Below are positions 1,804-62,777 of a stretch of 64,000 nucleotides of DNA, piece by piece. The translations under genes and the position numbers were made by a program. Position 1 is the first letter of the stretch; every line of letters starts with the position of its first letter. The notes under the pieces are model-generated. The model did not search any database. It was not told where the DNA came from and saw only the letters and a program-made list of their open reading frames with translations. The stretch is taken from positions 7,415-71,414 of the IMG/VR virus record IMGVR_UViG_2895192334_000003. One strand, written 5' to 3'. This stretch comes from a virus. Its lineage: Duplodnaviria; Caudoviricetes.

Positions 1804-4599
1804 TCAACCAAATTGAACATAAGCAGGAACACGACCATTATCTAATTGACGTGCCAAAGAGTCTAATGCTTGATAAATTCTTTCTATATCTTTCATACTA
1901 GACACTGGAACACCCCCAATATACAATTGGCTACCATTCCACATTAAACCATTGTTCCCGCCAATAGTTAAAGTTCCATTGCTTGTGTTGTATTTAAAGC
2001 CATTTGATCCAAATATAACACCACTAGAGGATATGTCGATATAATTTGTTCCAGAGCTACCTATTTTTAACCTTGATGTAGCTGGCATTGATATGCCAGA
2101 AGTATTAACAACAATCTTTTCACCATTGGGAGCTATAATCGACAGATCCCCTTTCGCATTTACATAGAAAACCTCTCTGCCATCTTTTTTGATATAAAAC
2201 CCCTTAGCGTTCATTTCGGTATTAACAGTAGTACCACTATTAGTGTTACTTACAGTTATGCCGTCTTTATCAATGCGAACACCATTAGAAGTTGTAGTTA
2301 AGCCATTATCACTTAATTTAGCACCACCATAGGACTTATCTTTGTAAACTAAATCAGACACTTCTTGCCAATGACAAGTTCCACTATAAGAGCCTATACC
2401 AGTCCAAGAATAAGTCTTATCCTTATTGTATCTGTAAATACCCACTACCTTGCCAGAACCATCTTCATTAGTAGATTTAAGCCATAAAGCCCCATCTGGA
2501 ATTTTAATTGAACTATCAACAGTACCATTTTTAACATCTGGTGGAGTTTTTTGTCTATAAGTTTTTCCACCATTAGCTCTAACAAAATCTGCTAATTGAG
2601 ATTCTTCTGTTTGGTCTGTAATCAATATTTGATTAGCATTAACAGTAACAAACTCGCCAAGTCTACCACGAATAGCTTCCGCATTAATACCATCGCCACT
2701 AATAGCAGTACCCACAGTTTCCCAATTGTCATTAGTAAAAGCTATAACATTGTGAACACCTCTAACTTGTCTATTATCAATAGTTCCATCAGGATTTTCT
2801 TTTAATAACCACAAGCCCCTATCATCTAAAATAGGTTTTTGATTTTCAGCAGACACAATAGCTTGTTTAGACAAATCTAAATTCATATCTAATCGTCTAG
2901 CAATAGTAGAATATTTTTCAATAGACTTATTCCACTCACTATCTCTTAAAGCCACTTGATGAGAGGCTGTCTGTATATTGGATATTAAATCACTTAAATA
3001 GAAAGTAGGGTCAGTAGTAGAAAACTTGTTGCCAAAATGCAATTTAATGCCCTCATTGCTATAATCAAGTTCCATTTCTAGCAATCTAACCTCAAACTTA
3101 ATGTCCAAATCATCTGATTCTAAATTGACTAAATCACCAACTTTAAGTCTTGCCATAGGCTTCTTAAACCTAGCAATTTTTCTAAAGTCGTCTAAATCCA
3201 TATCAAAGGAAATAATAGGGTAACATAACCTCTTAATTTCTTCTTGTGCATATTCATAGAGATTGTTCTCATCAGTTCTTTTAAAAGAATTATCTCGAAC
3301 AACACTCTCTTTAATAAACCTATCATATTCTCTTAAAACATCTGGGGTAAAGAATAGGGAAACATCTACTTGTTTTTTTAAATCTTCTCTCTCTTTATTG
3401 GCAGCAATAAGATACTCTGTATTCTTTTTTATCTGGGAATGAATTTGGAGTAAATTTTGTCTTTCTTGCTTCAACTTAGCTTGATTTTCATGCATCTTGT
3501 TTGTCAACTCTGCACGAATTTCATCTTCATTATCATATTGAGAATTAGGAAGAGCTAAACCAGACACATTTTGGTCTATAAGCGTTTCTAGTCTTTTAAT
3601 AGCGTTTTCTTTTTCTTGTCGTAATACATCTAATCTGCCTAATTCTGTGTTGAACTTATCTAACTTTTTAACAATTTGAATAAAAGTAGGAGTTAAGTCC
3701 TTAACAGCCTTATCGTATTTATCTAAAGCATCTTCAAGATCCTTAGACATATAATGAAAATCTTTATAAAAAGACAAATCCTCCACATAGTTTTGTCCTA
3801 AAACATTGTAATTTTGAAAAGATATAGTATCATCACCATACATATATAATCGAGTAACAATGTCGTCAGTATTAATCTTCTTGGTGATTGACTTAACAAA
3901 ATTATTATCTGAAATCACAATACCTTGATTACCACCAAGAGCATTTTTTTCGCCATCAACAGTAATTACCCTTATCTCTTCTTTAACAGTGTCATATTGA
4001 AATAAACAATTAAACTTCTCCTGGCAAGTTTTAAAAGCATCTAAAATAGAAGTATCAGAGAATTTAAGTTCCCTAGTCTTGTTTAATAGCTTAGGGGCAA
4101 CATAACTTACTCTCCATGATGTTTTATTTTCCACATAATTGAGGAATCCTCTTTCAACACCATCTCTATCTATGCTATTGTTAGGGTCATACAACATACT
4201 ACCCTCTTTATCAAACTTTTGTACCTTTTTATAAGACAAAGTATATTCAGTAGAATAAGCAGTTATTGACTTTACAACTTCGCCACTTTCACTCTTTCTT
4301 TCCTCTGGATTTTGAATAATGAAATATTGACCCTCTTTGTCGTCTTTGCCATCATTTAAATATATAAAAAAATCTCCGTAAATAGCATCGTACAACTCAT
4401 TTCTAACCTTTTTACCTCTAGCGGTTGACCTATATAGAGGAACATCAAAGGACAACTCGTCAACATTTACAAGAGATATTTTTCTATTTAAATTATTGAT
4501 ATTGTGTATCTCCATAAAAGGCTTTCTATCTGGCTTACAAAGAGATAATCTCATCTTCTTTTGAAAATCCACACCCTTTAAAGATATATCCATAAACAC
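1804..4599 (-). CDS. Tail-associated Tal/tail-spike protein (prophage endopeptidase-tail type, SPbeta YomG-like)
   Basis: Follows Dit; N-terminal Tal-like region (ELSFDVP...TRLYMYG), central coiled coil, C-terminal Gly/Ser-rich beta repeats. Confidence 0.75.
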   Translation of the reverse strand: MFMDISLKGVDFQKKMRLSLCKPDRKPFMEIHNINNLNRKISLVNVDELSFDVPLYRSTARGKKVRNELYDAIYGDFFIYLNDGKDDKEGQYFIIQNPEERKSESGEVVKSITAYSTEYTLSYKKVQKFDKEGSMLYDPNNSIDRDGVERGFLNYVENKTSWRVSYVAPKLLNKTRELKFSDTSILDAFKTCQEKFNCLFQYDTVKEEIRVITVDGEKNALGGNQGIVISDNNFVKSITKKINTDDIVTRLYMYGDDTISFQNYNVLGQNYVEDLSFYKDFHYMSKDLEDALDKYDKAVKDLTPTFIQIVKKLDKFNTELGRLDVLRQEKENAIKRLETLIDQNVSGLALPNSQYDNEDEIRAELTNKMHENQAKLKQERQNLLQIHSQIKKNTEYLIAANKEREDLKKQVDVSLFFTPDVLREYDRFIKESVVRDNSFKRTDENNLYEYAQEEIKRLCYPIISFDMDLDDFRKIARFKKPMARLKVGDLVNLESDDLDIKFEVRLLEMELDYSNEGIKLHFGNKFSTTDPTFYLSDLISNIQTASHQVALRDSEWNKSIEKYSTIARRLDMNLDLSKQAIVSAENQKPILDDRGLWLLKENPDGTIDNRQVRGVHNVIAFTNDNWETVGTAISGDGINAEAIRGRLGEFVTVNANQILITDQTEESQLADFVRANGGKTYRQKTPPDVKNGTVDSSIKIPDGALWLKSTNEDGSGKVVGIYRYNKDKTYSWTGIGSYSGTCHWQEVSDLVYKDKSYGGAKLSDNGLTTTSNGVRIDKDGITVSNTNSGTTVNTEMNAKGFYIKKDGREVFYVNAKGDLSIIAPNGEKIVVNTSGISMPATSRLKIGSSGTNYIDISSSGVIFGSNGFKYNTSNGTLTIGGNNGLMWNGSQLYIGGVPVSSMKDIERIYQALDSLARQLDNGRVPAYVQFG

Positions 4600-11400: not shown

Positions 11401-13158
11401 AGCCATAACATCTTTACCTTGACTTTTAAGTTCTTGGTATTTAGCCACGAGATTGTCCATCATTTCCATAAAAGGTTTCAAAGATTCAGTTCCATCTTTA
11501 TTTATATTGGTAAATTCCACACCATATTGTTTTAATTTCTCAATTCTTTTACCATCAGCCATATAAGCAAAGATAGTTTTAAATTGAGTACCAAGCACAT
11601 CTCCAGTTAATTTCATTCTCTCCATAACAACAGAAGATGCGGCGTTTAATTCATGCAAGTCCATTCCTAGAGATTTAGCATTAGCACCAGCACGAGAAAC
11701 GACTTCCACAAGGTCATTTACATTTCTAACAGCAGTTTTATCAGCAACCTTAGTCAAAGCATCTAATATCTCTGGAGCTTTAGTAGCGTCTCCATTGTAC
11801 ATTTGATTAATAATAGAGTTCATAGAAGCAACAGCAGATTCAGCATCCTTAAATTCAGCAACATTAAAACCAAGAGCGGTAGTTTTAGTAGCCTCTACAA
11901 GAGCTTGTCCACCTTTACCAGCTCTCGCCCACAAACCCTCAATTTCTTGAATGGTATTGACATTTAAACCCATATTTTTACCCATATCAAAGGTAGCATC
12001 AGCAAGGGCATCCATTTCCTTTTTTGTATAGCCAGCTATACGTTGAACCTCAACAGCGTTCTTTTCAAAGGTCATGATTTCTTTATTGATATAACCAAAG
12101 GCTCTTTTAATAGCATAAGCTTGCCCTAATAGAATACCTAAAGATTTAGTAGTACCTTTTACAGACTTATCTGATCCACTAAAATTAATAGCCTTGTCCA
12201 TTTTGCCCGCTTGTGTTTCAAGTTGTCTTTGCTCTTTCTTTATATCGCTTAACTGTTTCTTTAAGGCATTGGCACTTGCCTTACCCGTTTCAGTAGTAGT
12301 GCTTATGATTTTTACATTACCATCTTTAAGTATATGAAAAATTTGAGTAATCTCATTTTGAGCATCGTTTCGATATTTAGCCATAACTTGCGTAATACCA
12401 CTTTTGAGCATGGATTCCTTATAGCTAATAGCGTAATCACTTTTGGAAGCTAAATTCTTAATGCCGTCAAACTCGCCTTGCGAAATTATCTTGTCGTTTG
12501 ATTCTTTAAAAGTCCTAATAGCCTTACTTGCCTTATTATAATTATCCTCAATGGACTTCATGGCAGACTTATTTTGTTCAATTTGGTAATTGACAACAGA
12601 CATCGCTTGTCCAAGTCGTCTTAGAGATTCTGCCTTTTCAACAGCAGAGCCACTTTTACTATTAGTTTTATAATCATCTAAAGCCATTTGAGATAAATCT
12701 TTTAAATTTAATTCTTTAACAAGAGAAGTCCTTTCCTTCGCCCATTTAGTCAACTCTTGTCTTTGCTTGTCGATAAATTTAGATAAATCTTGTGTTTGCT
12801 TATCTATCCCAGCAGTACCCATATCCATTTTAGATAGAGCATCACTAGCCTTTTTAAAAGTATCGACATTTTTATCTATGTACTTATTTAACTCATTGAC
12901 ATCAGATGTTAAATTTCTCATAGAATTACTCACTTGTTGATTCCCAGCAGTAATTTTTACAAGTTCATCATACATCTTTTTAAGATCTTGCTCTGATTGT
13001 TTAGAGTTAATATTTAACTTGTTATCCTTAAAAGCATTGCCTAAAGCTTTCGCTTGCTTATCTATGTCATTTAATAGTTTATTAATAGCTTCGGCATCTT
13101 GTTGAAGTTGACCATAACCAAGACCAACCTCACCAAATAATTTTAAATCTTCTCCCAT
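5413..13158 (-). CDS. Tape measure protein with C-terminal NlpC/P60 peptidoglycan hydrolase domain (2581 aa)
   Basis: Very long helical ORF after the tail chaperone; TMP core (ALTKVADKTAV...GDVLGTQFKTI); RDCSSYV...GDILW...NHTEI NlpC/P60 Cys-His motif near the C-terminus. Confidence 0.92.
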   Translation of the reverse strand: MGEDLKLFGEVGLGYGQLQQDAEAINKLLNDIDKQAKALGNAFKDNKLNINSKQSEQDLKKMYDELVKITAGNQQVSNSMRNLTSDVNELNKYIDKNVDTFKKASDALSKMDMGTAGIDKQTQDLSKFIDKQRQELTKWAKERTSLVKELNLKDLSQMALDDYKTNSKSGSAVEKAESLRRLGQAMSVVNYQIEQNKSAMKSIEDNYNKASKAIRTFKESNDKIISQGEFDGIKNLASKSDYAISYKESMLKSGITQVMAKYRNDAQNEITQIFHILKDGNVKIISTTTETGKASANALKKQLSDIKKEQRQLETQAGKMDKAINFSGSDKSVKGTTKSLGILLGQAYAIKRAFGYINKEIMTFEKNAVEVQRIAGYTKKEMDALADATFDMGKNMGLNVNTIQEIEGLWARAGKGGQALVEATKTTALGFNVAEFKDAESAVASMNSIINQMYNGDATKAPEILDALTKVADKTAVRNVNDLVEVVSRAGANAKSLGMDLHELNAASSVVMERMKLTGDVLGTQFKTIFAYMADGKRIEKLKQYGVEFTNINKDGTESLKPFMEMMDNLVAKYQELKSQGKDVMANDMIKNLSGVRNVATLKNLVEGWSSMRERILLSQNSKGFAERQNAKMMETYAKKVEQLKVAFQELAVSIGNNGFLDLLKNIADGTRVSIEFFSKYNKEILTVVGTIGLFKTAMMGLSGIQKVFGSNGLGGLFRLLTSNGYSKKFKVGATLSTLSGTEFLVKKEDIKEAFDSFDAMKQKAKETISPVSSLSVAMANLKGNAMAMKTAMSGTAGIIGGITLAIGALATAYYVYRQKRINILEDFTSGKADEAINNIRELKKELDDITKTNAYKKGDSNALDAYKSTTEELARVLGIAHSVTVGNKESMDLYNESLRVAVELKEKEYELNNKIAISEAKKSIHDLVKPTVDSAGGLGTSKMPTGASKLTQSVERYLIALKNVKDLRKKINNGDNPAGMLKKLDDAMIEQTKKELELTEKLQTLKQNQAISGTTDDELKKMLDGQSYNGKPIIDFIDAFLAKTPDVKDAIGDIGDKASDTKDEIEEMAKTIQELVDEFNNLTNKTDAMDTAFQEIYDTGHISNGTVMKLLSADNEMAQYLVKTKDGYTLLSGALEHYNEQQDEANKTTDEAINKLREKYDMETDVSGNPIAKATNPDDVSKNIELMVNDITKGVDKVKATFEGGTTSVKEFLDKIKNAKDDADLSNLLSGLDTSQIEALNGELANQLQQSMNNIHNQFNAGLIDIGDYAGALNAAKGEALELYAQINNLSQNANGVWVNQKGEIDEFANALDQSTSKINDAKDNYNRLIDAFENTPTMSLIFADDDFDIPREQVAKFADDFTAMMRDMKDNNSVTWDKIVAEVMEKTGMTKEETEKCLTDSSAFVKEQDAIVKSAVTVTFSNLATQLGLTEAQVAKAAIGIRDKLSTLANFAMATMNTVNAALGTKDNYYKILQTPVGNLLSPTATINTTLNNGKLKVPTSSGRLVEKSTAFGTTLEADIEEYKKRSEEVKKAKEKLKNANNEFEQEMSNTAGTIKQGDKRLQNIVKNNDSNRKGSGNSSPNGVPKVIEDKIEDLRHELEMGRISEEQFYKGVENLYKNNSGSLSKRGKQKFEKMLKDAKSKADNSMPPYVKVLVDDLEEQLKYGEIDQYTYSSKLDDLARRYKTQLGTKAIKEIEKKISDAKVGGLDKYFKAQIDEYENIIKVSDLAIKKIQAEQSLFEALNMGDTAGMSLQASKINVINNKLYITEALAKKYESVLKVINEEIKKLDTNSSSYKTTLQGLASKQSEFTNKLNETKISIIELQKLRVEEQMKVYDAMQKKYDDAVSTIEQIESKLVTYIQQRNQKIREQIDKNHQAKMDSIEKEAQARDKELEKEKKRLQDALEAYRKYTQGKIDALNKEAEEEDYNEELNKKMQERDELQYRINSLSLDDSSEGRAKRIELKKQLADKNNEIEKFQKERSRKLTQDGLQEQLKDYEDSIEQKQKKMDDNAKHERELLDNRKQMLEDEHKHELEILDEKMKASSVYAEAKTAILSGYVQDATGASITIRDAMIDGMKEQGHASGILAQKYINDLDAVIRKAKEAQQIMGMAKSSASAGSLQARLGLTDEGYQQYLGDKANYLGFSKDDTERYINNKVAWGSASASEKKRLSHENHLLRAKYAGAGNWNNKNFNKDINGEVLGLAWVEDTGSAMKVGQAGGQFTPFGGNFGREEARDTALADFGLLSSYTRGSSEAFFDNQMNQFKRGGYSYSQPTFADWTSRDYYNRYKEQSQFLDRFNRTPADKSDYVGALNYIRGYKEDLENNFDDSYMNQDYPYDSGDNSVREALMSAAKAQDGLPYSQGSNRYTTHRDCSSYVYYAVKNAGLYGGDGFYTGDMIPKLAQYGWQDLGHIPKEQIRRGDILWVRDGKRNHTEIATQDGTLNTTGAHSPSKPAGPSVWTYDYKVLRHPKVNGYSNGGVADYTGMAMLHGTKSSPEYIFNTPQFDALGRIIANYISAPAIYGKGVYNGADSIVPEINIDTLINIEGNADQNTVREIERRSDEILDNLIIGLKKRGIRK

Positions 13159-25559: not shown

Positions 25560-26170
25560 TTTATTGGGATTGGGGGTTTCACCCCCAACGCCCCCAGCAG
25601 GGGGTTACCCCCTGCACCCCCGCAAACCACAAACTATCTAAGCAGGATACATAAAGGATCACAAACTATTCTTTATTTTTCTCTTGACTTTTCTTTTTAT
25701 GATCTCTTCTCTCACGAGGCTTGTATACCCCCCCCCTGCCAGTCCAAAATAAATAAAGATACTTATTTTTTCATGGCAGGGCAGAATAAATCTGGGTACA
25801 ATATATACCAATGTTCTTCAAGCTCTAAAGAGCTAAGTCGTCTAGGTCTAGTATTATCAACTGGCATTTCAGCCTTGAACATTCCCCCTAGAGCCGAAGC
25901 TCACTAGGACAGGGAGGGTTAAAAAATCAAACAATCACTACTAGAATTTATACTCATCATGCTACACTATTACAGTTCCTCACAAAACGAGTATCACTGG
26001 CTTTAACCCATTAGTCGAGTTGGTAAGACTCGCTCGTTATTTTTTTATTCCATTATTCGACTCAAGGAATACTTGCGAGGGTGTCAGGAGGTGATATGTC
26101 ATCTTTAAAACATTAAAGAATAATATATGGCTAATAACTTTTATAGCAAACCTCGCAAGATTTTTTCTTA
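25560..26170 (-). ncRNA. Candidate structured late-operon leader RNA
   Basis: ORF-free; multiple stems including a C(UUCG)G hairpin (25887-25908), a junction at 25986-26038, CCCTGCCA/TGGCAGGG and CTTGCGAGG/CCTCGCAAG. Confidence 0.5.
25570..25621. repeat. GC-rich twin hairpins with extra C5/G5 tracts
   Basis: TTGGGGG-TTTCA-CCCCCAA and GCAGGGGG-TTA-CCCCCTGC, plus C5 tracts at 25591 and 25617. Confidence 0.85.
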
Positions 26171-26347: not shown

Positions 26348-27340
26348 ATGGCAAACAAAGAAAAAATTATGAATAGATATAATCATTCACTAATACAAAA
26401 ACTTTTTGAGGAGATGAAAGACACTTGCTCAAAGGACACATATAAAGTATATGAAACTCCAATTAGAAACTTTTTTTTCGATTTTTTGGATTTAGATTTT
26501 GTAACAGTGAGAGACATAAAAGCAGTTACCACATCACAAGTAAATGAGTGGATTTATCAATTAAAACAAGAGGGGAATAAAAACTCCACAGTCAACAGAA
26601 TGGTCAGTAGCTTATTTTGGTTCTATAAGAACTTACTACAAAAAGACAACCCAATAGTGGAGAATAACCCTTTTAGTACAGATATGGGTGCAAATAGATT
26701 AAAAGCAAGTAAAGTAGCAAAAGGAGTAAGAATATCAGATGAAAAGCTAAAAGAAATAAATACCTATTTTGCCAATGATAGATCTTGGATAGGGGAGAGG
26801 AACTACATTATGTTTCTAATATTCATAACAACGGGAATGAGAAAGAGCGAAGTGCGTAACATTAAAATTGGAGATTTTTACGACTATGGCGAAAAATTCG
26901 CAGTATCCTTTGTAGGTAAGGGGGATAAGTTCAATGTAGCAGAGATACCACAAGGAATAAAACACATTCTGCACTCCTTTATCGTCAGAAGTGATTGGAG
27001 TTACGATTTAAGAGGACAATATATTTTTGTAGCAGATCCAAAATCAAATGTAGCAATATCAGGTAGACAATTAAATTATATCTTTGACGATGCCTATAAA
27101 GCAGTTGGTTTGCCAAGCACATTAAGAATACACGATTTAAGACACACATATATCACCAAGTCATTAGAAATGGGACTAGACATATATGATGTTTCCAAAA
27201 GAGTAGGACACGCCAATATAGACACAACTAGAAGATACGACCATTCCTTTAGAATTTTTAACGACAATCCAGCAGAGGACTTTTTCAGCCAGCTAACGGA
27301 AAAATCACAACAAAATTATCCATTATTAAAAATAGTATAA
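26348..27340 (+). CDS. Tyrosine recombinase/integrase
   Basis: TGMRKSE (R), GKG.K, HDLRH, GHAN and RYDH (Y) catalytic set; N-terminal SAM-like domain. Confidence 0.92.
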   Translation: MANKEKIMNRYNHSLIQKLFEEMKDTCSKDTYKVYETPIRNFFFDFLDLDFVTVRDIKAVTTSQVNEWIYQLKQEGNKNSTVNRMVSSLFWFYKNLLQKDNPIVENNPFSTDMGANRLKASKVAKGVRISDEKLKEINTYFANDRSWIGERNYIMFLIFITTGMRKSEVRNIKIGDFYDYGEKFAVSFVGKGDKFNVAEIPQGIKHILHSFIVRSDWSYDLRGQYIFVADPKSNVAISGRQLNYIFDDAYKAVGLPSTLRIHDLRHTYITKSLEMGLDIYDVSKRVGHANIDTTRRYDHSFRIFNDNPAEDFFSQLTEKSQQNYPLLKIV

Positions 27341-29705: not shown

Positions 29706-29816
29706 AAAAAATATCCTCCTCAAAAATTCATCAAATAACCTTAAATAATAAATAAAAATCAAAAAAAAGATAAAAACAATTCTAAATTCCTAGACCAAAT
29801 ATATGTATTAAAAATA

Positions 29817-29859
29817 AAAACGCAACGTAGGGGTATTGTAGGCTCTTAGAATTGATTTC
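29817..29859 (+). repeat. Copy of the dispersed 43-bp intergenic element
   Basis: AAAACGCAACGTAGGGGTATTGTAG-N12-GATTTC; compare 40702 and 51989. Confidence 0.55.
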
Positions 29860-30323
29860 AGTAATCACATCTATTTTTAATCTTTAATCTTCTTGAAGTT
29901 CAAACCTTTAAAACTCCCACAAATAAAACCCTTTAAAAATACATAAAAATGTTTTTTAAAGAATCACAATATCATCAATGGGAAATAATTATCAAATTTA
30001 GCATTATTATATCAGATAATTGTATCAATCTAAATCATATTAGCACAAAATTTTATAATATAATTAATATTAGTATCATAAATTTTTTTACAAAATATAC
30101 TCTAATTATATAGCCAGCATCTTATTTACTCCAGACATCTTGTACTATTTTAAACATTATATTCTATGTGCCAATATCTCAATCCTTTAAATGCCTTGTT
30201 TGCTATACATATTCCAATCATTACAGTTATCTTGTTTTAGTGTCAATATTTTAATCATTACGCATAGTTTGTTTATTACAAACATCTCATTTACTATACA
30301 CGTCTTTTGAACATACACATCTT

Positions 30324-30364
30324 ATTCACTTATATATCTCATTCACTTATATATCTCATTCACT
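30324..30364 (+). repeat. 17-bp tandem repeat (2.4 copies)
   Basis: ATTCACTTATATATCTC x2 plus ATTCACT. Confidence 0.9.
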
Positions 30365-30579
30365 GTAAAAATTATCCCCCTTATATAAACATATTCCATA
30401 GAAAAACCTCAAATATACTATATTCTATTATGATTATATACAATATATACCACATAGAAGTTGTTTAAAATACCCCTAAATTAAGTTTTAAATAAATAAT
30501 AGATCAATAGTATTAATAAATAAAAAATAAAGCACAATTATAGATAATTCAATACAAAACACATCAAACATAAAAAAAT

Positions 30580-30657
30580 ACCTCATAGCATTTGTGTTAC
30601 CCATAAACATACGTATCAAATAAAACTTTATGTAACACAATTTCAGTAATATGAGGT
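30580..30657. repeat. Long interrupted inverted repeat
   Basis: ACCTCATA/TATGAGGT, TTGTGTTAC/GTAACACAA and CATAAA/TTTATG nested stems. Confidence 0.75.
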
Positions 30658-31588
30658 TAAATTTATTAGTTTTATTTAATTGAGTTGAACTAAAAAAATA
30701 GGTGCAAATACACCTACTTTGTCAACAGTCTGAATTTATTAAATGAAATGAATTATTGAAAAATAAAGACAATAAATTTATTAAAGAACAAATTGATTTA
30801 AAAAAAATTTATTACAAATTTATATTTAAATAATAAATTTATTTAATTGAGTAACCCCACCAATTTTCATAACACAAACAATTGTGTTTTTTAGTAAATA
30901 CCCCCCTTAAATAAAATACGCTACAAACTTTGTAAAATACATAGTTGTAATATCTTTAAAAAATTGTACTTTTTATAATACTTCTATTGGGTAAAATAAT
31001 CATTTCATAAAATCAATATTTTGTGAAACGCTAGACCCGTTGCAATTACTGGCTTGTAGAGGTTTTTGCGAACCATTATTATTTATTTATATTTATTATT
31101 TACTATTACTCATTATCATTATTGTTTATATTTATCACGATTTATCATTATTATTTACAAAAACTTATAAAATAAACATTTTAATTATGATCATTATTGT
31201 TTATTATCGCTCTTGGTCAAATGGTCGGAGTTTATTCTAATAGATCTAAATAAAAATAATTTTTCTTAGTCAGGTATATTTAAAAATATCCTCATTATCA
31301 TTATTTGTTATCGTTATTATTTACTAATACTAACTATTATTATTTACATTCTATGTAACAATATTTACACTGTATTTATTATTAAACAATCTAACAATTA
31401 CAATACTATAATATTAATAATATATCTATGATATAAATTTGTATGGTAGATATTAAACTAACGAACATAATACATTTAATGATAGATTAAATAATAGCCT
31501 TGTGATATTGTATAATACACCATAAAAAGAATTATTCATTGTAATTACTTCTATATAAAGGGAAATAAAAGAACAATAATAACTAATA

Positions 31589-31669
31589 AAAAAATAGATT
31601 GCAATAACATTATTATAAGCTTAATAATTATAACTATTAAACTTGTGAAGTTATTACAATCTATTTTTT
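31589..31669. repeat. 20-bp inverted repeat (one G-U on the minus strand)
   Basis: AAAAAATAGATTGCAATAAC ... GTTATTACAATCTATTTTTT. Confidence 0.8.
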
Positions 31670-31799
31670 AAAACTCTAAACAATTTAAACTCTATCTAAT
31701 ATAATTATAGTAAAATTATAAAAACAATGCAACAATAAAACTGTTAAAGTTAGTAAATAACTATATTATACGACATTATAAAAAAATAAAAAAAAGTTG

Positions 31800-31829
31800 T
31801 TGACAGTTTAAAAACTACGATGGTACAAT
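31800..31829 (+). promoter_or_regulatory. SigmaA-type early promoter 1
   Basis: TTGACA-18 bp-TACAAT with an extended TG. Confidence 0.7.
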
Positions 31830-31884
31830 ATAGGCAAGTTAAAAGCTTATATTTAACTTTGTTGTTCAAATCTAAAAAAAAGAC

Positions 31885-31913
31885 TTGACACAATAGAAAA
31901 CAGTTGATAAAAT
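31885..31913 (+). promoter_or_regulatory. SigmaA-type early promoter 2
   Basis: TTGACA-17 bp-TAAAAT with an extended TG. Confidence 0.75.
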
Positions 31914-31952
31914 ATAAGCAAGAAAACAAAAAAATATTTTTTTAAAGTATAA

Positions 31953-31971
31953 GTTAAGCATAACGCTTAAC
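31953..31971. promoter_or_regulatory. Palindromic operator candidate 1
   Basis: GTTAAGC-ATAAC-GCTTAAC; second copy at 32975. Confidence 0.65.
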
Positions 31972-32066
31972 AATATCTTTTAAAGATTGTTAAGAAAATT
32001 AGTTAAAAACGGATTACCTTGTTAAGTTGCCGTACAGTTTTTAAAAGATATTAAGAGCAATACAAT

Positions 32067-32095
32067 TTGACTTATACAAATAAAAAATATTTAAT
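32067..32095 (+). promoter_or_regulatory. SigmaA-type early promoter 3
   Basis: TTGACT-17 bp-TTTAAT immediately before the structured region. Confidence 0.55.
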
Positions 32096-32101
32096 TGAAT
32101 T

Positions 32102-32400
32102 CATTGGTGGTAAAACAGCGACTTGAAGTATCCACCTTGAACCTTGACAATTAAAAAAATTTAACCTCACTTAATTATTAATGAACCAGAACTTGAACTA
32201 ATTAATAATTAAGGGTAGAAAACTATAATCTTATATTTTTGGCTTGGATTAGCCTCACATGGGAATGTGATAGCATAGAGGATATAAGAAAAGGTAGGTT
32301 AGCTTGAACAATAGCACGTTCAAGTAATGGATGGCGTGAAAGTCGTTATAATCTCGGCAGTAATTGATACCCGCAGCTGAACTGAGACTTCCATTTTAAC
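32102..32400 (+). ncRNA. Candidate ~300-nt multi-domain structured RNA
   Basis: Four consecutive stem domains, two of them multibranch, with several G-U pairs valid on the plus strand; no ORF; lies right behind the promoters. Confidence 0.6.
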
Positions 32401-32561
32401 ACTCAAAAAAAAATCAAATTAATTTGATTTTATATTAATACTTGATATTAATATAATGAGTATTGATATAAGGTTAAAAAATTAAAAAAAGAGGTGGCGT
32501 ATTATAAAAAAATAAATACATTCATATTTTATGGTATAATCAACTATAAGAGGTTGATTAT

Positions 32562-32948
32562 ATGATAAATAATAAAAAGGTTTATAAGGTTGTAGACTAT
32601 CTTACACCTGCTGAAGTCTGCAAGGCTATCGGCATAAGTGAGAAGTCCACGCCTTTGATTACCCGTTGGATAAACAACGGGAAAATTAGGGGGCATAAAA
32701 GATTTGGAAGAAACAAAGCTATACCCGTAAATTGGGTAAAATCAGAGTGCCAATCTAGAGGCATAGATTGGCAAGGTGTAGAGTTAGAAGATAATGAAAT
32801 AGGTGTAAGTCTTGATGGCTATATAGATCTAAAAGCATACGCCAGCAATAGCAATAAAACATACGACCAATTGTATAAAGATATAGTAAATGGTAAAATA
32901 AAAAACTATATTCGATTCGGGAACGCTTTTGGGCTACCTAAAGAATAA
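32562..32948 (+). CDS. Tandem MerR/Xis-like HTH protein
   Basis: Two similar repeats: YLTPAEVCKAIG...WINNGKI and YIDLKAYAS...DIVNGKI. Confidence 0.75.
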   Translation: MINNKKVYKVVDYLTPAEVCKAIGISEKSTPLITRWINNGKIRGHKRFGRNKAIPVNWVKSECQSRGIDWQGVELEDNEIGVSLDGYIDLKAYASNSNKTYDQLYKDIVNGKIKNYIRFGNAFGLPKE

Positions 32949-32974: not shown

Positions 32975-32993
32975 GTTAAGCTAAACGCTTAAC
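32975..32993. promoter_or_regulatory. Palindromic operator candidate 2
   Basis: GTTAAGC-TAAAC-GCTTAAC; arms extend to 10 bp. Confidence 0.65.
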
Positions 32994-43347: not shown

Positions 43348-45432
43348 ATGGATTTATTAAATATACAAAAGCGAAAGCCTATTGTGGATTTAAACCAATA
43401 TAATTTTACAATATACGGCAGTGCGGGTGTTGGAAAGGCTCTTAGAAACGGCACACCAGTCCTAACAACAGAGGGCTGGATAGCCATTGAAGACCTCATT
43501 CCAAACAAAGATAAGGTTATTGGAAGTGACGGACAAGCCTATGATTTATTAGGTGTTTTCCCACAAGGTAAAAGACAGCTTTATAGAGTAAAGTTTTCAG
43601 ATGGTGCTTGGGTTGATGCTGATGGAGACCATATTTGGACACACTATAGAAGAAAATATCCTGACACAAAAAACCCAAGAAAACCACTAACATTTGATTT
43701 AACAACAAAAGAACTAAAAGAAGATTTAGACCAAAACTACATGAAGACATCAACGTTCCCTACAATCGAGAACTATGATGGCATACACAAGCACTTGCCA
43801 ATTCACCCATATTTATTGGGAGCACTTATTGCTGATGGATATTTGTCTGGGAATAATATTCAGTGGACTAAATCATACGAAAATGAGCCGAGAGTTTGTG
43901 CTTATGTGCACGGTCTAGTAGAATCTGATGAAATTAAAATGTCCATGAGAAAATCCAATAACACAAGAAATACAGATTGGGTTTCATGGCAACATTCAAT
44001 AGCTACCAATAAAGGCTATGGACAGCATAATCAAATTAAAGATAGATTGGAAATGTTGGGATTGCTTAACAAAAAAAGCAAAGAAAAATTCATTCCAGAA
44101 ATTTATAAATTAGCTACCAAAAAACAAAGACTAGCACTTATTAATGGACTGTTTGATGGTGATGGTACAGTTAGAACAGATAGACCAACTTGCAAATACG
44201 CAACAACGTCTAAACAACTTGCAAGCGATGTCCTAGAAGTGCTTTGGTCTTTAGGCATTAACGCTCATATAAAGTATATGAAAGGCGACAATTGTTATGC
44301 AGTCGTGATTTGGGATAAAGAATTTAACCCATTTAGATTTTCTACAAATAAAGAAAAAAGAGAATTAGCTGGCGTAAAGAGTTGGTCTAATAGAAGAAAA
44401 GTTGAATCTATTACAAAAGTAGACGTTGATGAAGCAACTTGTATATCAGTAGCGTCACCAGACAAGCTTTTTATCACAAAAGATTATATTGTAACTCATA
44501 ATACATCGTTTTGTTCTTATTTCTTTGATGAACCATTATTCCTAGCTTGGGAGCAAGGACAAAATGCACTTGAAGCATATGTTCAAGATATGTACACTTG
44601 GAAAGACTTTTTAGAGTTTGTCAAAGAGCTTAAAAAAATTCACAAAGAGGGCAAAACTACACCATTTAAGAATGTAATAGTCGATACAGTCGACATTATG
44701 AGGACAAAATGCGAAGAATATGTGTGCCGAATGAATGGCTGGGATAGTCCCGCAGATGGTAATTATGGTGCTGGCTGGGCGGCAATTACAAGAGAATTTG
44801 AGAAGAGAATCGGAGAAGTTAGAGCTTGCGGTTTAAAAGTCCACTTTATAGCACATGACAAAGTACAAAGAATAGAACGAAAAGATATGGCTTATGACAA
44901 AATAACACTTCAATTAGGCTCAACCGCTATTAATGAAGTTATTAAAAAAGTAGATTTTATTCTTTATTTTGACAAAGAGTATGAAAAAAACAACGATGGA
45001 GATACAATAGCAAAAAGAGTTGTCAGATTTCATGGTGGAGAAAATTACGAAGCTAAAACAAGAATTTCAGGCTTCCCAGAATTTATATATGCAGGCAATA
45101 GTGCTAAAGAAACAGCTCAATTGGTCAAAAAGTTATTTGAAGAAAAAGCAGAAGCTCTATTAGAATATGATTCTCCTAGAGAGGAAGCAGAAAAAGAAGA
45201 TACACCAGTCCAAGAAGAAAAAAAGCAGAGAAGTTCTGACATCAAGGAAATCGTTACCAAAAAAATGATTTCTGAATTAACGCAAATTGGGAAACAAAAA
45301 TTAAAAGAAAAGAAAGCTACGCTAGATGATATTACAAAAATCATCAAGGAAAATACAAGTGTTGAGTTAATGAGTGAGATTAAAGATATTGAAGAATTTA
45401 ACAAGGTAAAGGCACTTGTCGAAGCTCTTTAA
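43348..45432 (+). CDS. Sak4-like AAA ssDNA-annealing ATPase containing an intein (339 aa after splicing)
   Basis: Walker A GSAGVGK/TS is rejoined on intein removal; Walker B VIVDTVD; lies next to ssb. Confidence 0.8.
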   Translation: MDLLNIQKRKPIVDLNQYNFTIYGSAGVGKALRNGTPVLTTEGWIAIEDLIPNKDKVIGSDGQAYDLLGVFPQGKRQLYRVKFSDGAWVDADGDHIWTHYRRKYPDTKNPRKPLTFDLTTKELKEDLDQNYMKTSTFPTIENYDGIHKHLPIHPYLLGALIADGYLSGNNIQWTKSYENEPRVCAYVHGLVESDEIKMSMRKSNNTRNTDWVSWQHSIATNKGYGQHNQIKDRLEMLGLLNKKSKEKFIPEIYKLATKKQRLALINGLFDGDGTVRTDRPTCKYATTSKQLASDVLEVLWSLGINAHIKYMKGDNCYAVVIWDKEFNPFRFSTNKEKRELAGVKSWSNRRKVESITKVDVDEATCISVASPDKLFITKDYIVTHNTSFCSYFFDEPLFLAWEQGQNALEAYVQDMYTWKDFLEFVKELKKIHKEGKTTPFKNVIVDTVDIMRTKCEEYVCRMNGWDSPADGNYGAGWAAITREFEKRIGEVRACGLKVHFIAHDKVQRIERKDMAYDKITLQLGSTAINEVIKKVDFILYFDKEYEKNNDGDTIAKRVVRFHGGENYEAKTRISGFPEFIYAGNSAKETAQLVKKLFEEKAEALLEYDSPREEAEKEDTPVQEEKKQRSSDIKEIVTKKMISELTQIGKQKLKEKKATLDDITKIIKENTSVELMSEIKDIEEFNKVKALVEAL
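43438..44502 (+). mobile_element. Class 3 intein (355 aa) with LAGLIDADG homing endonuclease
   Basis: Starts with Ala (ALRNG); block B DGDHIW (Trp), block F TCISV (Cys), block G VTHN (Thr) form the WCT triplet; +1 Thr; LLGALIADG and LINGLFDGDG motifs. Confidence 0.9.
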
Positions 45433-53074: not shown

Positions 53075-53684
53075 AAACAATAGTGTATTTATAACGATAG
53101 GAGCATCGAACCACGCTAAAGAAGAAAGAGAAATCCACGATTATTATGCAACAGAACCACAAGCAGTACAAATGTTAATGGAAATTGAAGATATAAAACC
53201 AATTGTATTAGAGCCTTGTGTAGGTGGTGGTCATATAGCAGAAGAATTAAAAGCTAAAGGGCATAAAGTCATATCATCTGATTTAATCGACAGAGGTTAT
53301 GGAATTGGGAATAGGGATATATTCAACTATCATAATAAAAATGGAAAGCTCTATTACAAAGATGAACTAATTATTGATGGAGATTTTGACATTGTTACCA
53401 ATCCACCATATAAACAAGCAAATGCCATGACAGAGCATATGTTAAATTTATTGAATGACAATTGTAAACTTATACAATTTCTCAAACTAACATTTTTAGA
53501 AAGTAAGGCAAGAAAAGAATTGTATAAAAAATATCCATTAAAAACATTGCACGTAAGTAGTAGCAGACTTATAACTTGCAAAAATGGAGATTTCGATAAA
53601 TATCAATCAAGAGCTATTGCTTATGCTTGGTACGTTTGGCAAAAAGGATATAAGGGCGAGCCAACAATAAAATGGTTTAATTGA
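53055..53684 (+). CDS. Amino (N6A/N4C) DNA methyltransferase-like protein
   Basis: DYYAT, VLEPCVGGGHI (SAM-binding), DIVTNPPY catalytic motif. Confidence 0.8.
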   Translation: MKLNNNKNNSVFITIGASNHAKEEREIHDYYATEPQAVQMLMEIEDIKPIVLEPCVGGGHIAEELKAKGHKVISSDLIDRGYGIGNRDIFNYHNKNGKLYYKDELIIDGDFDIVTNPPYKQANAMTEHMLNLLNDNCKLIQFLKLTFLESKARKELYKKYPLKTLHVSSSRLITCKNGDFDKYQSRAIAYAWYVWQKGYKGEPTIKWFN

Positions 53685-59043: not shown

Positions 59044-62000
59044 ATGGAAGCCTATTACACACCTCTCCATGTTCACACTTCACGAGGTTCATTATTGGAT
59101 AGCACCAATACTCCTAAATCTTTAGTAGAAAGAGCAAAAACATTAGGACTAAAAGCATTAGCTATCACAGATCATGGCTATTGCTCAAATCACGTAGACT
59201 TCTATAAAGAGTGTATAGCTAACGGCATTAAGCCTATTTTGGGTATGGAGGGTTATATCGCCAAAGATATGACTATAAAAGAAAAAGAACAAGGCTTTTA
59301 TCACGTTATTCTTTTAGCGAAAAATAACACAGGATATAAAAACTTACTAAAGATATCTTCATTAGGACACACTAAAGGTTTCTATTACAAACCTAGAGTT
59401 GACTTAAAGACCATTAGAGAGCTCAATCTTGGTGAGGGCATAGTTGCTACATCAGCGTGTGTGGGTGGACAAGTGCCTCAAATGATATTAAACAACTATT
59501 TCGTGGATAGTATAACGGATAAAATTCAAGAGTATAAAGACACTTTTGAAGATTTTTATTTAGAATTACAACCGACCAATACACCTGATAACGAGCAAAC
59601 AAGAACACAACATTATGTAAATTATCAAATATATTGTTTAGCACAACATACAAAAACAAAAATGGTGGCAACTTCGGATTGCCACTTTACCAACAAAGAA
59701 GATTTTGATTTACACAATGTATTCATTCAAATATCACAAGATAGAGATAATGAAGCCTATGAAAACTGTTGGCTAAAATCCTATGATGAAATGTTAAATG
59801 GAAACTATTTTGGTGAATACAAAACTATACCAAAAGAAGAAAAACGTCAAATAGAGGCAATCTTGAACGTTACAAAGGATGTTGCAAACGATTGCACTGT
59901 AAAGTTGGAAATGGGTAAATCCTATATTCCCTCCGCAGAAATACCAAATGGTAGAACAAAAGAAAGCCAAATACTGGAATTGATTATAAAGGGATGCAAA
60001 AAAAGAGGATTTGACAAATTTGATAAAGAAAAAAAAGAACTCTATTGGAATAGAATTAAAACAGAGTTTGAAGTCTTAAAAGCTAAAGGATTTATAGATT
60101 ATTTCTTGTTAGAATATAACATTATCCACACAGCAAGAAAAAAAGGAATAATCATATCTCCAACAGCCAGAGGTTCTGGAGCAGGATCGTTAATATGCTA
60201 CGTATTAGAACTAACACACGTTGATCCAATAAAATATAATCTATTGTTTGAAAGATTTCTCACAATAGAAAAAAAGGGTCTACCAGATTAAGATATTAGT
60301 CGAGCTGACTATAAAAAGGGATAAAAGTCAGTGTTAATTTTCGTGAACCACATAACAAAGTGGGTGTGTGAATGCTATTTATTATAGGCAGGAAAGTAGT
60401 ATTCATGCTAACGGGGAAACTCTAAAGAGCAATCTATGACAATCCCGTGCCAAGTTAAATAGAAGTGTTTATATTGAGAACGAATGTAACTAAAAATATA
60501 AAATTTAAAAACAAATATGTAGTCTTTTTCACTAGAAAAAACAAAAGAACAATTGCGAATATTTTAAACACATATATTTAAAAGGTGTAACGACTAGCTC
60601 GTAGGGGCGTAGGGTGGGTATTGTTCCACTCGAAGTGCGAAACACCATACCCGATAAAACATGGTGAAGATATAGTCTATTCCTTGTAGAAATATAAGGT
60701 AGTAAAGATAGATACAGATGTAGCAACACAAGACAAAGATAAATTAGTAGATTTAATTAAAGATATGTACGGACACGATAAAGTAGCTCAAATAGCTACC
60801 TTTGGAACATTACAATCTAAATCGGCAATACAATCCATAGGGAAAGTATTAAACATACCATATAAAACTGTCGAAGAAATAAAAAAGGGAGTAACAGATG
60901 GACTTTCCATAAAAGAATCCTTAGAAACAAATAAAGACTTACAACAATATAGAGAATTATATCCAAAGTTATTTGATTACTCAATGCGATTAGAGGGTTT
61001 AGAAAGAAATATATCAACTCATGCTGGAGGAGTAGTTATAACACCAAAAGATAAAACGATGAGTGATTTTTGCGGCATGAGTATATCAAGAAGAGAAGAA
61101 GAAATAACACAACTAGACATGGGAAATTGTGAAGAAGTAGGACTAGTCAAAATGGACTTTTTAGGACTATCAACACTTGATGTGATATATGACACCTACA
61201 AAATTATAAAAGAAAAAACTGGCAAAGACATAGAATTAAAACCAGAAACGATGAACTTTGACGATGAAAAAACCTTTGATATGTTAATAAAAGGTCATAC
61301 AAAAGGAGTATTCCAATTGGGATCAAAAGGAATAACAGAAGCGTGTAAAGAACTAAAACCAAACACCTTTGACGAATTGACCAACTTAGTATCACTTTAT
61401 AGACCAGCCACATTAAAAGCCTTAGAAAGATATATTAAGAAGAAAAAAGGCGAACTAGAAATAGAGTCCATAGAACCAAGAGTAGATGAAGTTTTAAGCA
61501 CAACAAAGGGAGAACTAATCTATCAAGAGCAAATGATGAGAATGTTAAAAATAATGGCAAACTTCTCTGACGGAGAAGCAGATCATGCAAGAAAAATCTC
61601 ATCAAAGAAAAAAGTAGAAGAATTTGAACAAGTGATGCAAGACTTCAAAAAGAGAGCAAAGAATAATGGGTTTACCGAAAAAGCAATAGACACAGTTTAT
61701 GACATGATAAAAGACAGTGCAAGCTATTCCTTTGCTTTAGCTCATGGAGTATCTTACACAATGCTAACATATATCACCGCATACCTTAAAGCTCACTTCA
61801 CAACAGAATTTATGTGTTCACTTTTAACTAATCAACGTAAAGAGGGTTCAACGGATATGGAAGCCTTAAACGAATACATAAAAGAATGTGAAGCAATGGG
61901 CATAAAATTAAAGAATCCTGATTTAAGAATTGGCAATTTTGACTTTAAAGTATCCAAAGACAAAGAAATAATCTATGGATTGGATTTAATAAAAGGATGC

Positions 62001-62777
62001 AACAAAAAAGAATTAGAAGAATTAGTCCAACATAAATTTACAACCTTTGATGAAGTGTTAGAAATTTCAACCTCAAAACAAACATTAGTACCATTAATAA
62101 AAAGTGGAGCAATGGATCATCTCGGAGAGAGAAAAGACTTATTGATAAAATTACTTGCCAAGAGATTTGAATTAGGACAAGAAAAGAAAAAGAAATTAAA
62201 AACTATAAATAAAAAACATATCGCACAATTATTATCAGAAAGGAAAATAACATTAAGTGAAGTTCCTCTTTTTGGCACAGAAGCCAAACAATTAAAGGAT
62301 AATCAAATAAAAGAAAATAATCTCAAAAAAGAAAAAGTACTAAAAATACTAAACCAAGAAAACAAAAAAGAAGTGTGGCAAGATTGGAAAGAAAATATTC
62401 TTATTGGAGATTATGCAATATGGGAATACCAAATATTAGGATATACCTTGACTGGAGAACTATTCCAGAAAGTAGACAAATTTGTTAATTTCTTTACAGA
62501 AACCTTTGAGTATATAGATTTACCTTGTATAGTAAATAAAATCGATAAAAAGAAAATAAAAAAAGGAAAATCAAAAGGACAAGAAATGGCAATACTAGAC
62601 TTAGACACACCCTTTGGAGAAATAAGAGCCTTATGCTTTGCTACAAGTTGGCAGAAGCTAAAATATAAAATAGACAAAGGAAAAAGATATATCCTATGTG
62701 GAACAAAAAAAGACAATCAGTTGATAATAACAGGCATGATGAGTTATGACAGATATATAAAAAACTTTAGAGAATAA
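59044..62777 (+). CDS. dnaE: DNA polymerase III alpha subunit, two exons (59044-60288 + 60708-62777; 1104 aa spliced)
   Basis: PHP domain (HVH, TDHG, DCH), RGSGAGS, FERFL..PD|IDTD, FGT, HAGG, KMDFLGL, IYQEQ, YSFA.AH; OB-fold C-terminus. Confidence 0.93.
60289..60707 (+). mobile_element. Group I intron (419 nt, IA-like, no homing endonuclease)
   Basis: 5' exon ends in U, intron ends in G. P ACGGGGAAAC, Q AATCCCGTGCCAAG, R AACGACTAG, S AAGATATAGTCT; P1, P2, P3, P7, P8 and P9 stems are visible; splicing restores PDIDTD in frame. Confidence 0.92.

Follow-up and report, generated by a model that had tools for sequence, protein, structure and literature searches.

What can a phage place between its early promoters and its first early gene when that segment holds no reading frame? 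In the 64,000-nt stretch analysed here (the window; positions 7,415 to 71,414 of IMG/VR record IMGVR_UViG_2895192334_000003, almost wholly within an integrated siphovirus prophage), we find a structured RNA of ~235 nt, located at 32162-32394 on the plus strand and folding into five helical domains. We hold with high confidence that it represents a family of plus-strand structured RNAs. The family has no counterpart in Rfam 15, and the data searched showed it in this phage lineage only. The RNA comes first behind the strongest early promoters, is coupled to a leader laid out like that of ribosomal RNA (rrn) operons and, in phages that are nearly identical elsewhere, gives way to a second RNA family or to protein genes. 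As the best explanation of the whole, we tentatively prefer an rrn-like leader followed by a self-contained RNA of this new family that would work in trans. Phage-borne structured RNAs are known, and to our knowledge almost none has been assigned a function; we likewise know of almost nothing about the phages of the host group, the Gram-positive anaerobic cocci. An initial annotation of the window had described a ~300-nt multi-domain RNA of unknown family at this place. That observation was largely right and the sequence is as described, with no plus-strand open reading frame (ORF) of at least 30 aa between 32072 and 32544; its interpretation as a whole is partly supported.

A new RNA family with two subtypes

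The DNA of the interval had no match in INPHARED or IMG/VR, nor outside its own genome among ~540 related ones, and the helix-turn-helix (HTH) protein encoded downstream was therefore taken as the anchor: homologues of the RNA were reached through the contigs of its relatives (32 HTH-protein homologues). Six full-length copies were recovered from metagenomic phage contigs, and they fall into two subtypes. Subtype A, which includes the window element, comprises L045:3137-3380, L044:3200-3442 and L050:1542-1780, with 87-89%, 78% and 77% identity to the window copy, respectively. Subtype B comprises L038:3116-3403 (L038 = L039), L049:3153-3441 and L061:249-535. Across the family, lengths range from ~235 to 290 nt. 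A covariance model built on subtype A only (R1) scored the window at 271.5 bits and the subtype B copies at 62-80 bits, all over their full length. Window and homologues alike share an architecture of five helices, P1 to P5, together with a conserved P2 loop, a conserved joining segment J2/3 and a conserved P5b loop.

Beyond these contigs, the searches were negative. At the gathering score, Rfam 15 gave EGFOA as its sole match in the window and none for the RNA, in agreement with the unknown family of the initial annotation; at E <= 10 over 31600-32700 the best matches (E = 3.9-6.3) lay far under the gathering score. No match to the window element was found by blastn among INPHARED phages, no relative in IMG/VR via the HTH protein or three DNA patterns, and no R1 homologue in Clostridium phage Amboise. 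When 238 genomes of the host family were searched by blastn, and 151 genomes of the family and 151 of the order with model R1, only the window's own genome matched. Two candidates were discarded: an R1 match of 26.6 bits in genome G175 falls inside an ORF, and the sole match of a pattern scan of JGI metagenomes (L043) arose by chance within a coding ORF.

Covariation establishes the fold and its strand

The core is closed by P1 (TAACCT/AGGTTA, 32162-67/32296-301). Within it stand P2 (32170-82/32201-13), a long hairpin with 13-nt arms and 12 pairs in the consensus, and P3 (32229-40/32278-89), a three-way junction helix that holds P3a and P3b. The junction contains GGCT/AGCC (32241-44/32251-54) and TCACAT/ATGTGA (32255-60/32265-70), the latter closed by a GNRA loop; such a loop closes P3b in 3 of the 4 subtype A copies. 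P4 (CTTGAAC/GTTCAAG, 32302-09/32318-25) follows, and then a second domain with two hairpins, in which P5 (ATGG/CCAT, 32327-30/32391-94) encloses P5a (GGCG/CGTT, 32331-36/32344-49) and P5b (TCTCGG.../...CTGAGA, 32352-61/32376-87), one of them capped by a conserved AAUYGAUACCC loop. Three unpaired segments are likewise conserved: the P2 loop (AAMCAG..CUUGAAnUAAC), J2/3 (GGGUARAAAACUAUAA) and the P5b apical loop (AAUYGAUACC).

Most of these pairings had already been noted: the stem with 13-nt arms, the junction helix with GGCT/AGCC and TCACAT/ATGTGA, the P4, P5, P5a and P5b pairings, and a GGTGG/CCACC hairpin at 32106-32136 were all confirmed. The outer GTTAG/TTAAC helix proposed for the last domain has to be redrawn, with GTTAG being part of the AGGTTA at 32296-301 that pairs with TAACCT at 32162-67 to form the covarying P1. 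Nor is the segment a single RNA of four domains. It consists of a leader (32106-32150) and a separate, swappable RNA (32162-32394); the first of the four domains is an evolutionary unit distinct from the other three, and relatives without the RNA have it too.

Taken by itself, the window sequence gives a modest signal, with minimum free energy (MFE) z-scores of -2.6 (plus strand) and -2.1 (minus strand); comparison with the homologues is decisive. In sequence-only MAFFT alignments, RNAalifold finds 75 pairs for the four subtype A copies, 14 of them compensatory, and 63 pairs for two subtype B copies (17 compensatory). In an alignment of all seven sequences fitted to the model, 96.7% of cells are standard pairs and 43 of the 71 pairs change on both sides, values reached by none of 500 shuffles; when each partner was slid by 1-3 columns as a control, pairing amounted to 37-45% and double changes to 7-11 pairs. 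Each of the 11 helix segments counted contains at least one double change. P1 still pairs in subtype B through other sequences (GAUGC/GCAUC, GAGUC/GACUC, GAACC/GGUUC), and one pair of P4 loses both partners jointly in L044 and L050.

The strand is unambiguous. G-U cells outnumber A-C cells by 68 to 3 in the seven-sequence alignment, and the consensus energy is -50 kcal/mol on the plus strand versus -31 on the minus strand for subtype A, and -58 versus -27 kcal/mol for subtype B. The claim of a plus-strand structured RNA is thereby upheld, with covariation in all helical domains and a strong strand asymmetry. There is no conserved ORF across the RNA, a 17-codon ORF in P5 being truncated in L044. 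Two further pairings fared less well: a long-range GGGUA/UACCC pseudoknot is not kept in L038 and has one mismatched position in L044, and a switch in which the 3′ arm of P4 pairs with the P2 loop was rejected, since L044 and L050 lack the complementarity seen in the window and L045.

A leader resembling that of host rRNA operons

Promoter-like sites on the plus strand point into the interval, and we infer that transcription of the RNA starts from them. Early promoter A (31800-31829; TTGACA-18-TACAAT) and early promoter B (31885-31913; TTGACA-17-TAAAAT) each have an upstream TG and score 11/12 in a promoter scan; both hexamers of A are conserved in L038, L042 and Peptoniphilus ovalis, and B is conserved in relatives as well. 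The RNA thus stands behind sigma-A-type promoters, as first described. Where three such promoters had been counted, two are strong; the third (32069-32097; TTGACT-17-TTTAAT), read from the sequence, is weak, lacks the A at position 2 of its -10 element and was not called by the scan. The block containing it is conserved in all relatives.

Between promoter B and the RNA lies a palindrome, O1 (GTTAAGC-N5-GCTTAAC, 31953-31971; TTAAGC-N5-GCTTAA core 31954-31970), with a second copy of the motif, O2, just 3′ of the HTH gene (32976-32992). Perfect TTAAGC-N5-GCTTAA palindromes occur exactly twice in the window and bracket the RNA and the HTH gene, and in P. ovalis (L037) a pair at 2190-2206 and 3412-3428 takes equivalent relative positions. 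These palindromes are likely to be operators of the HTH protein, or else RNA hairpins.

The leader module itself (32106-32150, plus strand) consists of a hairpin, H1, followed at once by UUGAACCUUGACAA. H1 (GGTGG/CCACC, 32106-32136) carries a conserved loop, AAACAG..ACTTGAAGTA, and occupies a boxB-like position; the boxA-like sequence CUUGAACCUUGACAA (32136-32150), conserved in relatives, comes directly after it. The stem of H1 covaries, reading GATAG/CTATC in L042 and L045 and GGTAA/TTACC in P. ovalis, and a ...UUGAYAAUU... motif always follows. The module belongs to the conserved backbone of most related phages, where H1 also occurs with other cargo and without the RNA.

This arrangement recalls the start of rRNA operons. 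In Bacillus subtilis, rrn transcripts have a small 5′ hairpin and immediately thereafter a boxA-like sequence, AUGAUCUUUGAAA, that binds NusB, the Escherichia coli counterpart being UGCUCUUUAACA (PMC13753749). For the rrn antitermination complex, boxA is necessary and sufficient, and the elements are ordered boxB, boxA, boxC (PMC10250234). The host's rrn operons are laid out likewise, with three tandem promoters, a 5′ hairpin starting 7-8 nt past the last -10 element, and AUGAUAAUUAAAUA behind it. In the prophage, the -10-like TTTAAT of the third site ends 8 nt before H1, a spacing equal to that at the host rrn promoter closest to the 16S gene. Shared with rrn leaders and with lambda nut are thus tandem sigma-A-type promoters, a hairpin ~8 nt past the last -10 and a U/A-rich ...UUGAYAAUU... 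stretch, with the order boxB then boxA as in rrn leaders and a boxA-like sequence directly behind the hairpin, just 3′ of the promoter. The differences are that the phage leader has no rRNA downstream, that no boxC and no N-like protein were identified for it, and that its match to the boxA consensus is partial: the window motif agrees with the E. coli sequence at 8 of 12 positions and with that of B. subtilis at 9 of 13. L064 and L062 match the host rrn sequence at 13/14, the window less well, and L064 carries AUGACAAUUAAAUA at the place matching AUGAUAAUUAAAUA. Phage Amboise, too, has a hairpin and a near-canonical boxA, GGCTCTTTGACAA, before its early genes.

Whether H1 and its boxA-like motif are a Nus-factor antitermination signal, i.e., a boxA-type leader, is an even call on these likenesses, and the early control region as a whole may mimic an rrn promoter and leader. 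The initial annotation had listed an antiterminator among the functions of its RNA. This idea gains partial support for the leader and none for the large RNA. If the reading holds, it would show plainly that a phage has borrowed the host's rRNA promoter and leader design for making a non-coding RNA.

The recurrence of TTGAA(C) that had been remarked on is real in number, CTTGAA/TTCAAG occurring 5 times against 0.2 expected (2000 shuffles), and holds in part by conservation, with 3 of the 5 copies kept in homologues (H1 loop, boxA-like stretch and P2 loop).

Two observations from elsewhere concern the same motif. In Amboise (L065, ON453899; ~12740-13060, minus strand of the locus), a hairpin and GGCUCUUUGACAA are followed by a GC-richer foldable stretch (z = -2.5). 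This stretch bears the annotation of a small hypothetical protein; it may represent a further leader RNA. Scattered copies of TTGAACCTTRACA in genomes of the host family were considered as rrn and rejected; instead, they head a conserved leader reminiscent of integrative and conjugative elements (ICEs) near the pemK RNA motif. This leader, TTGAACCTTRACAAYTGAATAGACCAAGACA (G000:C12:~53522-53534 = L059; L052-L057), lies ~190 nt upstream of the pemK RNA motif (RF02913), follows a sigma-70 region-4-like ORF in many family genomes, has an ICE-type regulatory look and shares the boxA-like motif.

An exchangeable slot before the first early gene

Most phage-type relatives with enough upstream DNA show one recurrent order: a big non-coding gap, tandem promoters, the GTTAAGC-N5-GCTTAAC palindrome, a hairpin, a UUGAAC-CUUGACAA-like motif, a variable slot and the HTH gene. 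Four kinds of content were found in the slot, namely subtype A RNA, subtype B RNA, an unrelated RNA that we call RNA X, and a protein gene. RNA X (L042:3118-3396, L062:~415-720, L064:~1210-1500) measures ~260 nt and has no relation to subtypes A and B; across its three sequences, 13 of 78 pairs are compensatory, the consensus energy is -58 kcal/mol on the plus and -42 kcal/mol on the minus strand, and the closing helix makes use of the boxA-like stretch. Neither RNA X nor the Amboise region has a match in Rfam. In P. ovalis, the slot is taken by a Cas2/VapD-like ORF, and in L046-48 by a 240-aa ORF of no known family.

Two comparisons are telling. The HTH proteins of L061 and L062 are identical and the DNA downstream agrees at 98%, but L061 carries a subtype B RNA and L062 RNA X. 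Between the window and L045, DNA can be aligned (87-89%) over H1 and the RNA only, with HTH proteins that are 59% identical. The RNA with its short leader therefore moves as a cassette. No partner gene was seen to travel with it, both subtypes occurring with both length classes of the HTH protein and with varied downstream genes.

What lies 3′ of the RNA bears on where its transcript would end. At 32405-32436, an A-tract, an AT hairpin and a T-tract form a terminator-like element that is stronger leftward than rightward. The equivalent in relatives, AAGGGTA..TACCCTT, has its T-run on the minus strand only, and in L044, L045, L050, L049 and L061 the hairpin is not followed by a plus-strand U-tract. 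Since the hairpin terminates leftward only in most relatives, the RNA probably also forms the 5′ part of an early mRNA. The HTH gene has a promoter of its own, an extended -10 element (TGGTATAAT) read off the letters at 32532-32540 (plus strand), whose GTATAAT is conserved in relatives. Its product, the first early ORF (32562-32948, plus strand), is a DNA-binding protein of 128 aa assigned to HTH_17 (PF12728, below the curated cut-off; phrog_10045). A micro-ORF of 14-17 codons, M(K/E)G(S/C)(E/G)AY.ICKL, overlaps the HTH promoter region in several relatives (L061 ~585-635, L042 ~3440-3485, L045 ~3430-3480) with no obvious ribosome-binding site, and is absent from the window.

Relation to other phage RNAs

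ROOL and GOLLD are orphan structured RNAs carried by phages and prophages. The family described here is much smaller than either of them (~235-290 nt). EGFOA (RF02955) is likewise a phage-borne orphan structured RNA from a gene-free region, whose function is not known (bioRxiv 10.64898/2026.07.01.735769). Common to all of them are phage carriage, unusually large gene-free intergenic regions and complex multi-helix folds with covariation. In contrast to these three, the new RNA matches no Rfam model in sequence or structure, comes first in the predicted early transcript behind an rrn-like leader, and is exchangeable with protein genes. The prophage carries an EGFOA RNA as well (25809-25950, minus strand, 40.1 bits), in a ~1-kb gene-free gap that heads the leftward late structural operon; early and late operons of this prophage thus both begin with a structured RNA.

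The pRNA of phi29 is a structured RNA of ~170 nt that is made from a strong early promoter and acts in trans, as part of the packaging motor of small podoviruses with protein-primed genomes. By contrast, nothing seen here ties the new RNA to packaging, and the two share no similarity.

A possible function in trans and its rivals

How might leader and RNA work together? Most likely, in our view, H1 and the boxA-like leader would load an antitermination complex of the NusB/S10 type onto RNA polymerase, which would allow a long, untranslated and highly folded transcript to be finished and to fold. The RNA at 32162-32394 would then be an accessory early product acting in trans to help take over the host or counter its defences, possibly by binding a host or phage protein as a decoy. 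It would be an exchangeable cassette (an 'RNA moron') rather than a regulator of the downstream gene. Because the element sits in an integrated prophage, the immediate expression assumed by the initial annotation turns into a conditional one: the RNA would be made first after induction or infection. An accessory function in trans is our best guess, held a little more loosely than the reading as a whole, because of the cassette behaviour, the first place in the early region and the neighbours of anti-defence type (ParE, RadC and Fic among the early genes of the window; ArdA in L045 and L061). More speculatively, and rather doubtfully, the early slot may be a hot spot for interchangeable RNA effectors, with A/B and X alternating with protein genes and an rrn-mimicking unit of promoter, hairpin and boxA driving high-level, termination-proof synthesis and folding; its RNAs might then be decoys, sponges or self-assembling particles in host takeover or counter-defence. 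The cassette context makes the function testable, through natural or engineered swaps on hosts that differ in their defence systems.

Several points weigh against this interpretation. Just seven sequences, from about five lineages, could be compared; their joint alignment was fitted to the model, and covariation tests cannot tell RNA from single-stranded DNA. Transcription and both ends of the RNA are predicted only. The boxA match is partial, and the phage motif is not identical to the host's own rrn sequence. As a plus-strand U-tract is lacking after the RNA in most relatives, the RNA may be a mere 5′ portion of early mRNA, for which a role in cis fits too. No partner protein or target of the RNA was found. 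Its loop motifs showed no significant similarity or complementarity to 16S rRNA in local alignments: mimicry of 16S rRNA helix 24 was considered, with GGGUAG, AAACAG and GAUACCC resembling the 790-loop region by eye, yet alignments in sense and antisense were no better than shuffles (p = 0.05-0.8).

The main rival is a leader acting in cis, in which the fold would be part of a 5′ untranslated region controlling read-through into the HTH gene and the early genes, be it as a processive antiterminator, as a sensor of a ligand or protein, or as a processing or stability element. Processive antitermination RNAs such as HK022 put and B. subtilis EAR act in cis, and like them the new RNA is a structured RNA between an early promoter and its operon, here with a hairpin after it and an antitermination-like signal directly 5′. 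The hairpin in relatives is not a plus-strand terminator, so that read-through into the HTH gene is likely. However, a conserved extended -10 promoter belongs to the HTH gene itself, the same HTH gene and downstream DNA occur with different RNAs in L061 and L062, and in P. ovalis and L046-48 the slot holds a protein gene with its own promoter. The new RNA is also three to four times larger than put or EAR, matches none of the Rfam models for put, EAR or riboswitches, and is replaced by unrelated RNAs or protein genes before the same operon. No conserved alternative pairing of terminator and antiterminator was seen. As for a riboswitch or attenuator, which would combine an aptamer with a conserved expression platform, the downstream hairpin lacks a plus-strand U-tract in the five relatives named above, and the HTH gene has its own promoter; as for a processive antiterminator, the cassette is swapped independently of the downstream operon. 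A role in cis is unlikely in our estimation, if the most serious of the competing accounts.

Could the transcript instead titrate NusB/S10 off host rrn, as a sponge for Nus factors or an rrn mimic bearing CUUGAA and made from tandem strong promoters? The motif resembles the core of boxA, it is present in 5 copies against 0.2 expected, and its three conserved sites (in the H1 loop, after H1 and in the P2 loop) are single-stranded in the model. A precedent has been reported, with over-expressed lambda nutL RNA titrating Nus factors (PMC4807359). The proposal is pure inference from a 6-nt motif, however; RNA X cassettes lack the repeated loop motif, and the conserved P3-P5 domains would go unexplained. 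We consider it improbable.

More improbable still are two further accounts. One takes the inverted repeats as an element at the DNA level, either a single-strand origin or ssi-type signal or iterons or operators of a replication origin. The 2.8-kb, ORF-poor, AT-rich setting with tandem repeats would suit it, and strand asymmetry alone does not exclude single-stranded DNA because folded single-stranded DNA also tolerates G-T pairs. Against it, the helices stay paired as their sequences change, which is unexpected for protein-binding repeats, there is no periodic repeat within 32100-32400, strong promoters point into the interval, and DnaB, primase and a Pol III replisome are all encoded by the phage itself. 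As judged by replication context rather than by signatures of single-strand origins, a 73-kb double-stranded DNA siphovirus prophage with its own replisome is not the setting for such signals.

The other, quite as remote, would make the stretch after H1 an RNA anti-CRISPR, a class of early phage RNAs that consist of solitary repeat units, here mimicking a CRISPR repeat and mis-loading Cas proteins. A genome of another genus of the family (G219:C115 (L058) 52-325) has a CRISPR array with a 30-nt repeat, CTTGAACCTTAACAAAAGTTGTATTGAAAT. Positions 32136-32149 match 13 of the first 14 nt of this repeat, and in L038 the first 15 are exact. Further shared traits are a non-coding phage RNA with predicted early expression, a neighbourhood rich in anti-defence genes and, in the P. 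ovalis relative, a Cas2-like gene in the slot. Yet the overall match is 18/30, the region of the 3′ handle is unmatched, the unmatched part forms P1 and covaries freely, and the host has neither Cas1 nor an array; CRISPR-repeat mimicry was rejected on these grounds. The boxA-like reading also accounts better for the motif, which heads the ICE-type leader upstream of pemK RNA motifs as well. The resemblance between boxA-like motif and repeat may be due to chance or to a boxA built into the repeat.

Least probable of all is a decayed gene remnant or chance pairing in AT-rich DNA, to which the single-sequence z-score of just -2.6 and the protein genes in the slot of relatives might point, and which is contradicted by the covariation, by a conservation pattern that tracks the helices, by the absence of a conserved ORF and by an RNA more conserved than the neighbouring protein gene. 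As for the RNA of a type III toxin-antitoxin system, which is made of direct repeats of ~34-36 nt in tandem beside a toxin gene, 32100-32400 holds no tandem repeat and the next gene encodes the HTH protein.

The prophage and its other features

The window corresponds to C3:88639-152638 of a 2.13-Mb genome (30% GC) whose nearest named relative found is Peptoniphilus ovalis MSJ-1. The prophage measures ~73 kb and is flanked on the left by comEC, an integrase and an amidase, and on the right by a peptide release factor. Terminase, portal, major head and tail genes are on its minus strand; replication genes, coding for a beta clamp, DnaB, a primase, a Cas4-like nuclease and a split DnaE (Pol III), are on the plus strand. 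Amboise, the closest isolated phage, has a genome of 77 kb with the same gene order and a terminase of 40% identity.

The structured interval forms the right end of a 2.8-kb ORF-poor, AT-rich gap (29762-32562) that lies between a leftward Cu_amine_oxidN1 gene and the HTH_17 gene, where the rightward early genes begin. The remainder of this gap, 29762-31790, contains blocks conserved in relatives (30405-30527, 30832-31203 and 31479-31593) and small tandem repeats at 30319-30364 (period 17) and 31083-31135 (period 13).

Two tyrosine recombinases are encoded in the prophage. The one at the left end beside comEC (G000:C3:80299-81213) is likely the integrase, and the other (26348-27340), XerC-like, lies mid-prophage between the late and early modules. 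The split in the DnaE (Pol III alpha) gene leaves a gap at 60292-60764 between ORFs 59044-60291 and 60765-62777, in which 60507-60699 gives a sub-threshold match to a group I intron (36.9 bits, E = 1e-7). At 43348-45432, an AAA_24 (Sak4-like) protein has an inserted LAGLIDADG homing-endonuclease domain, which is probably an intein.

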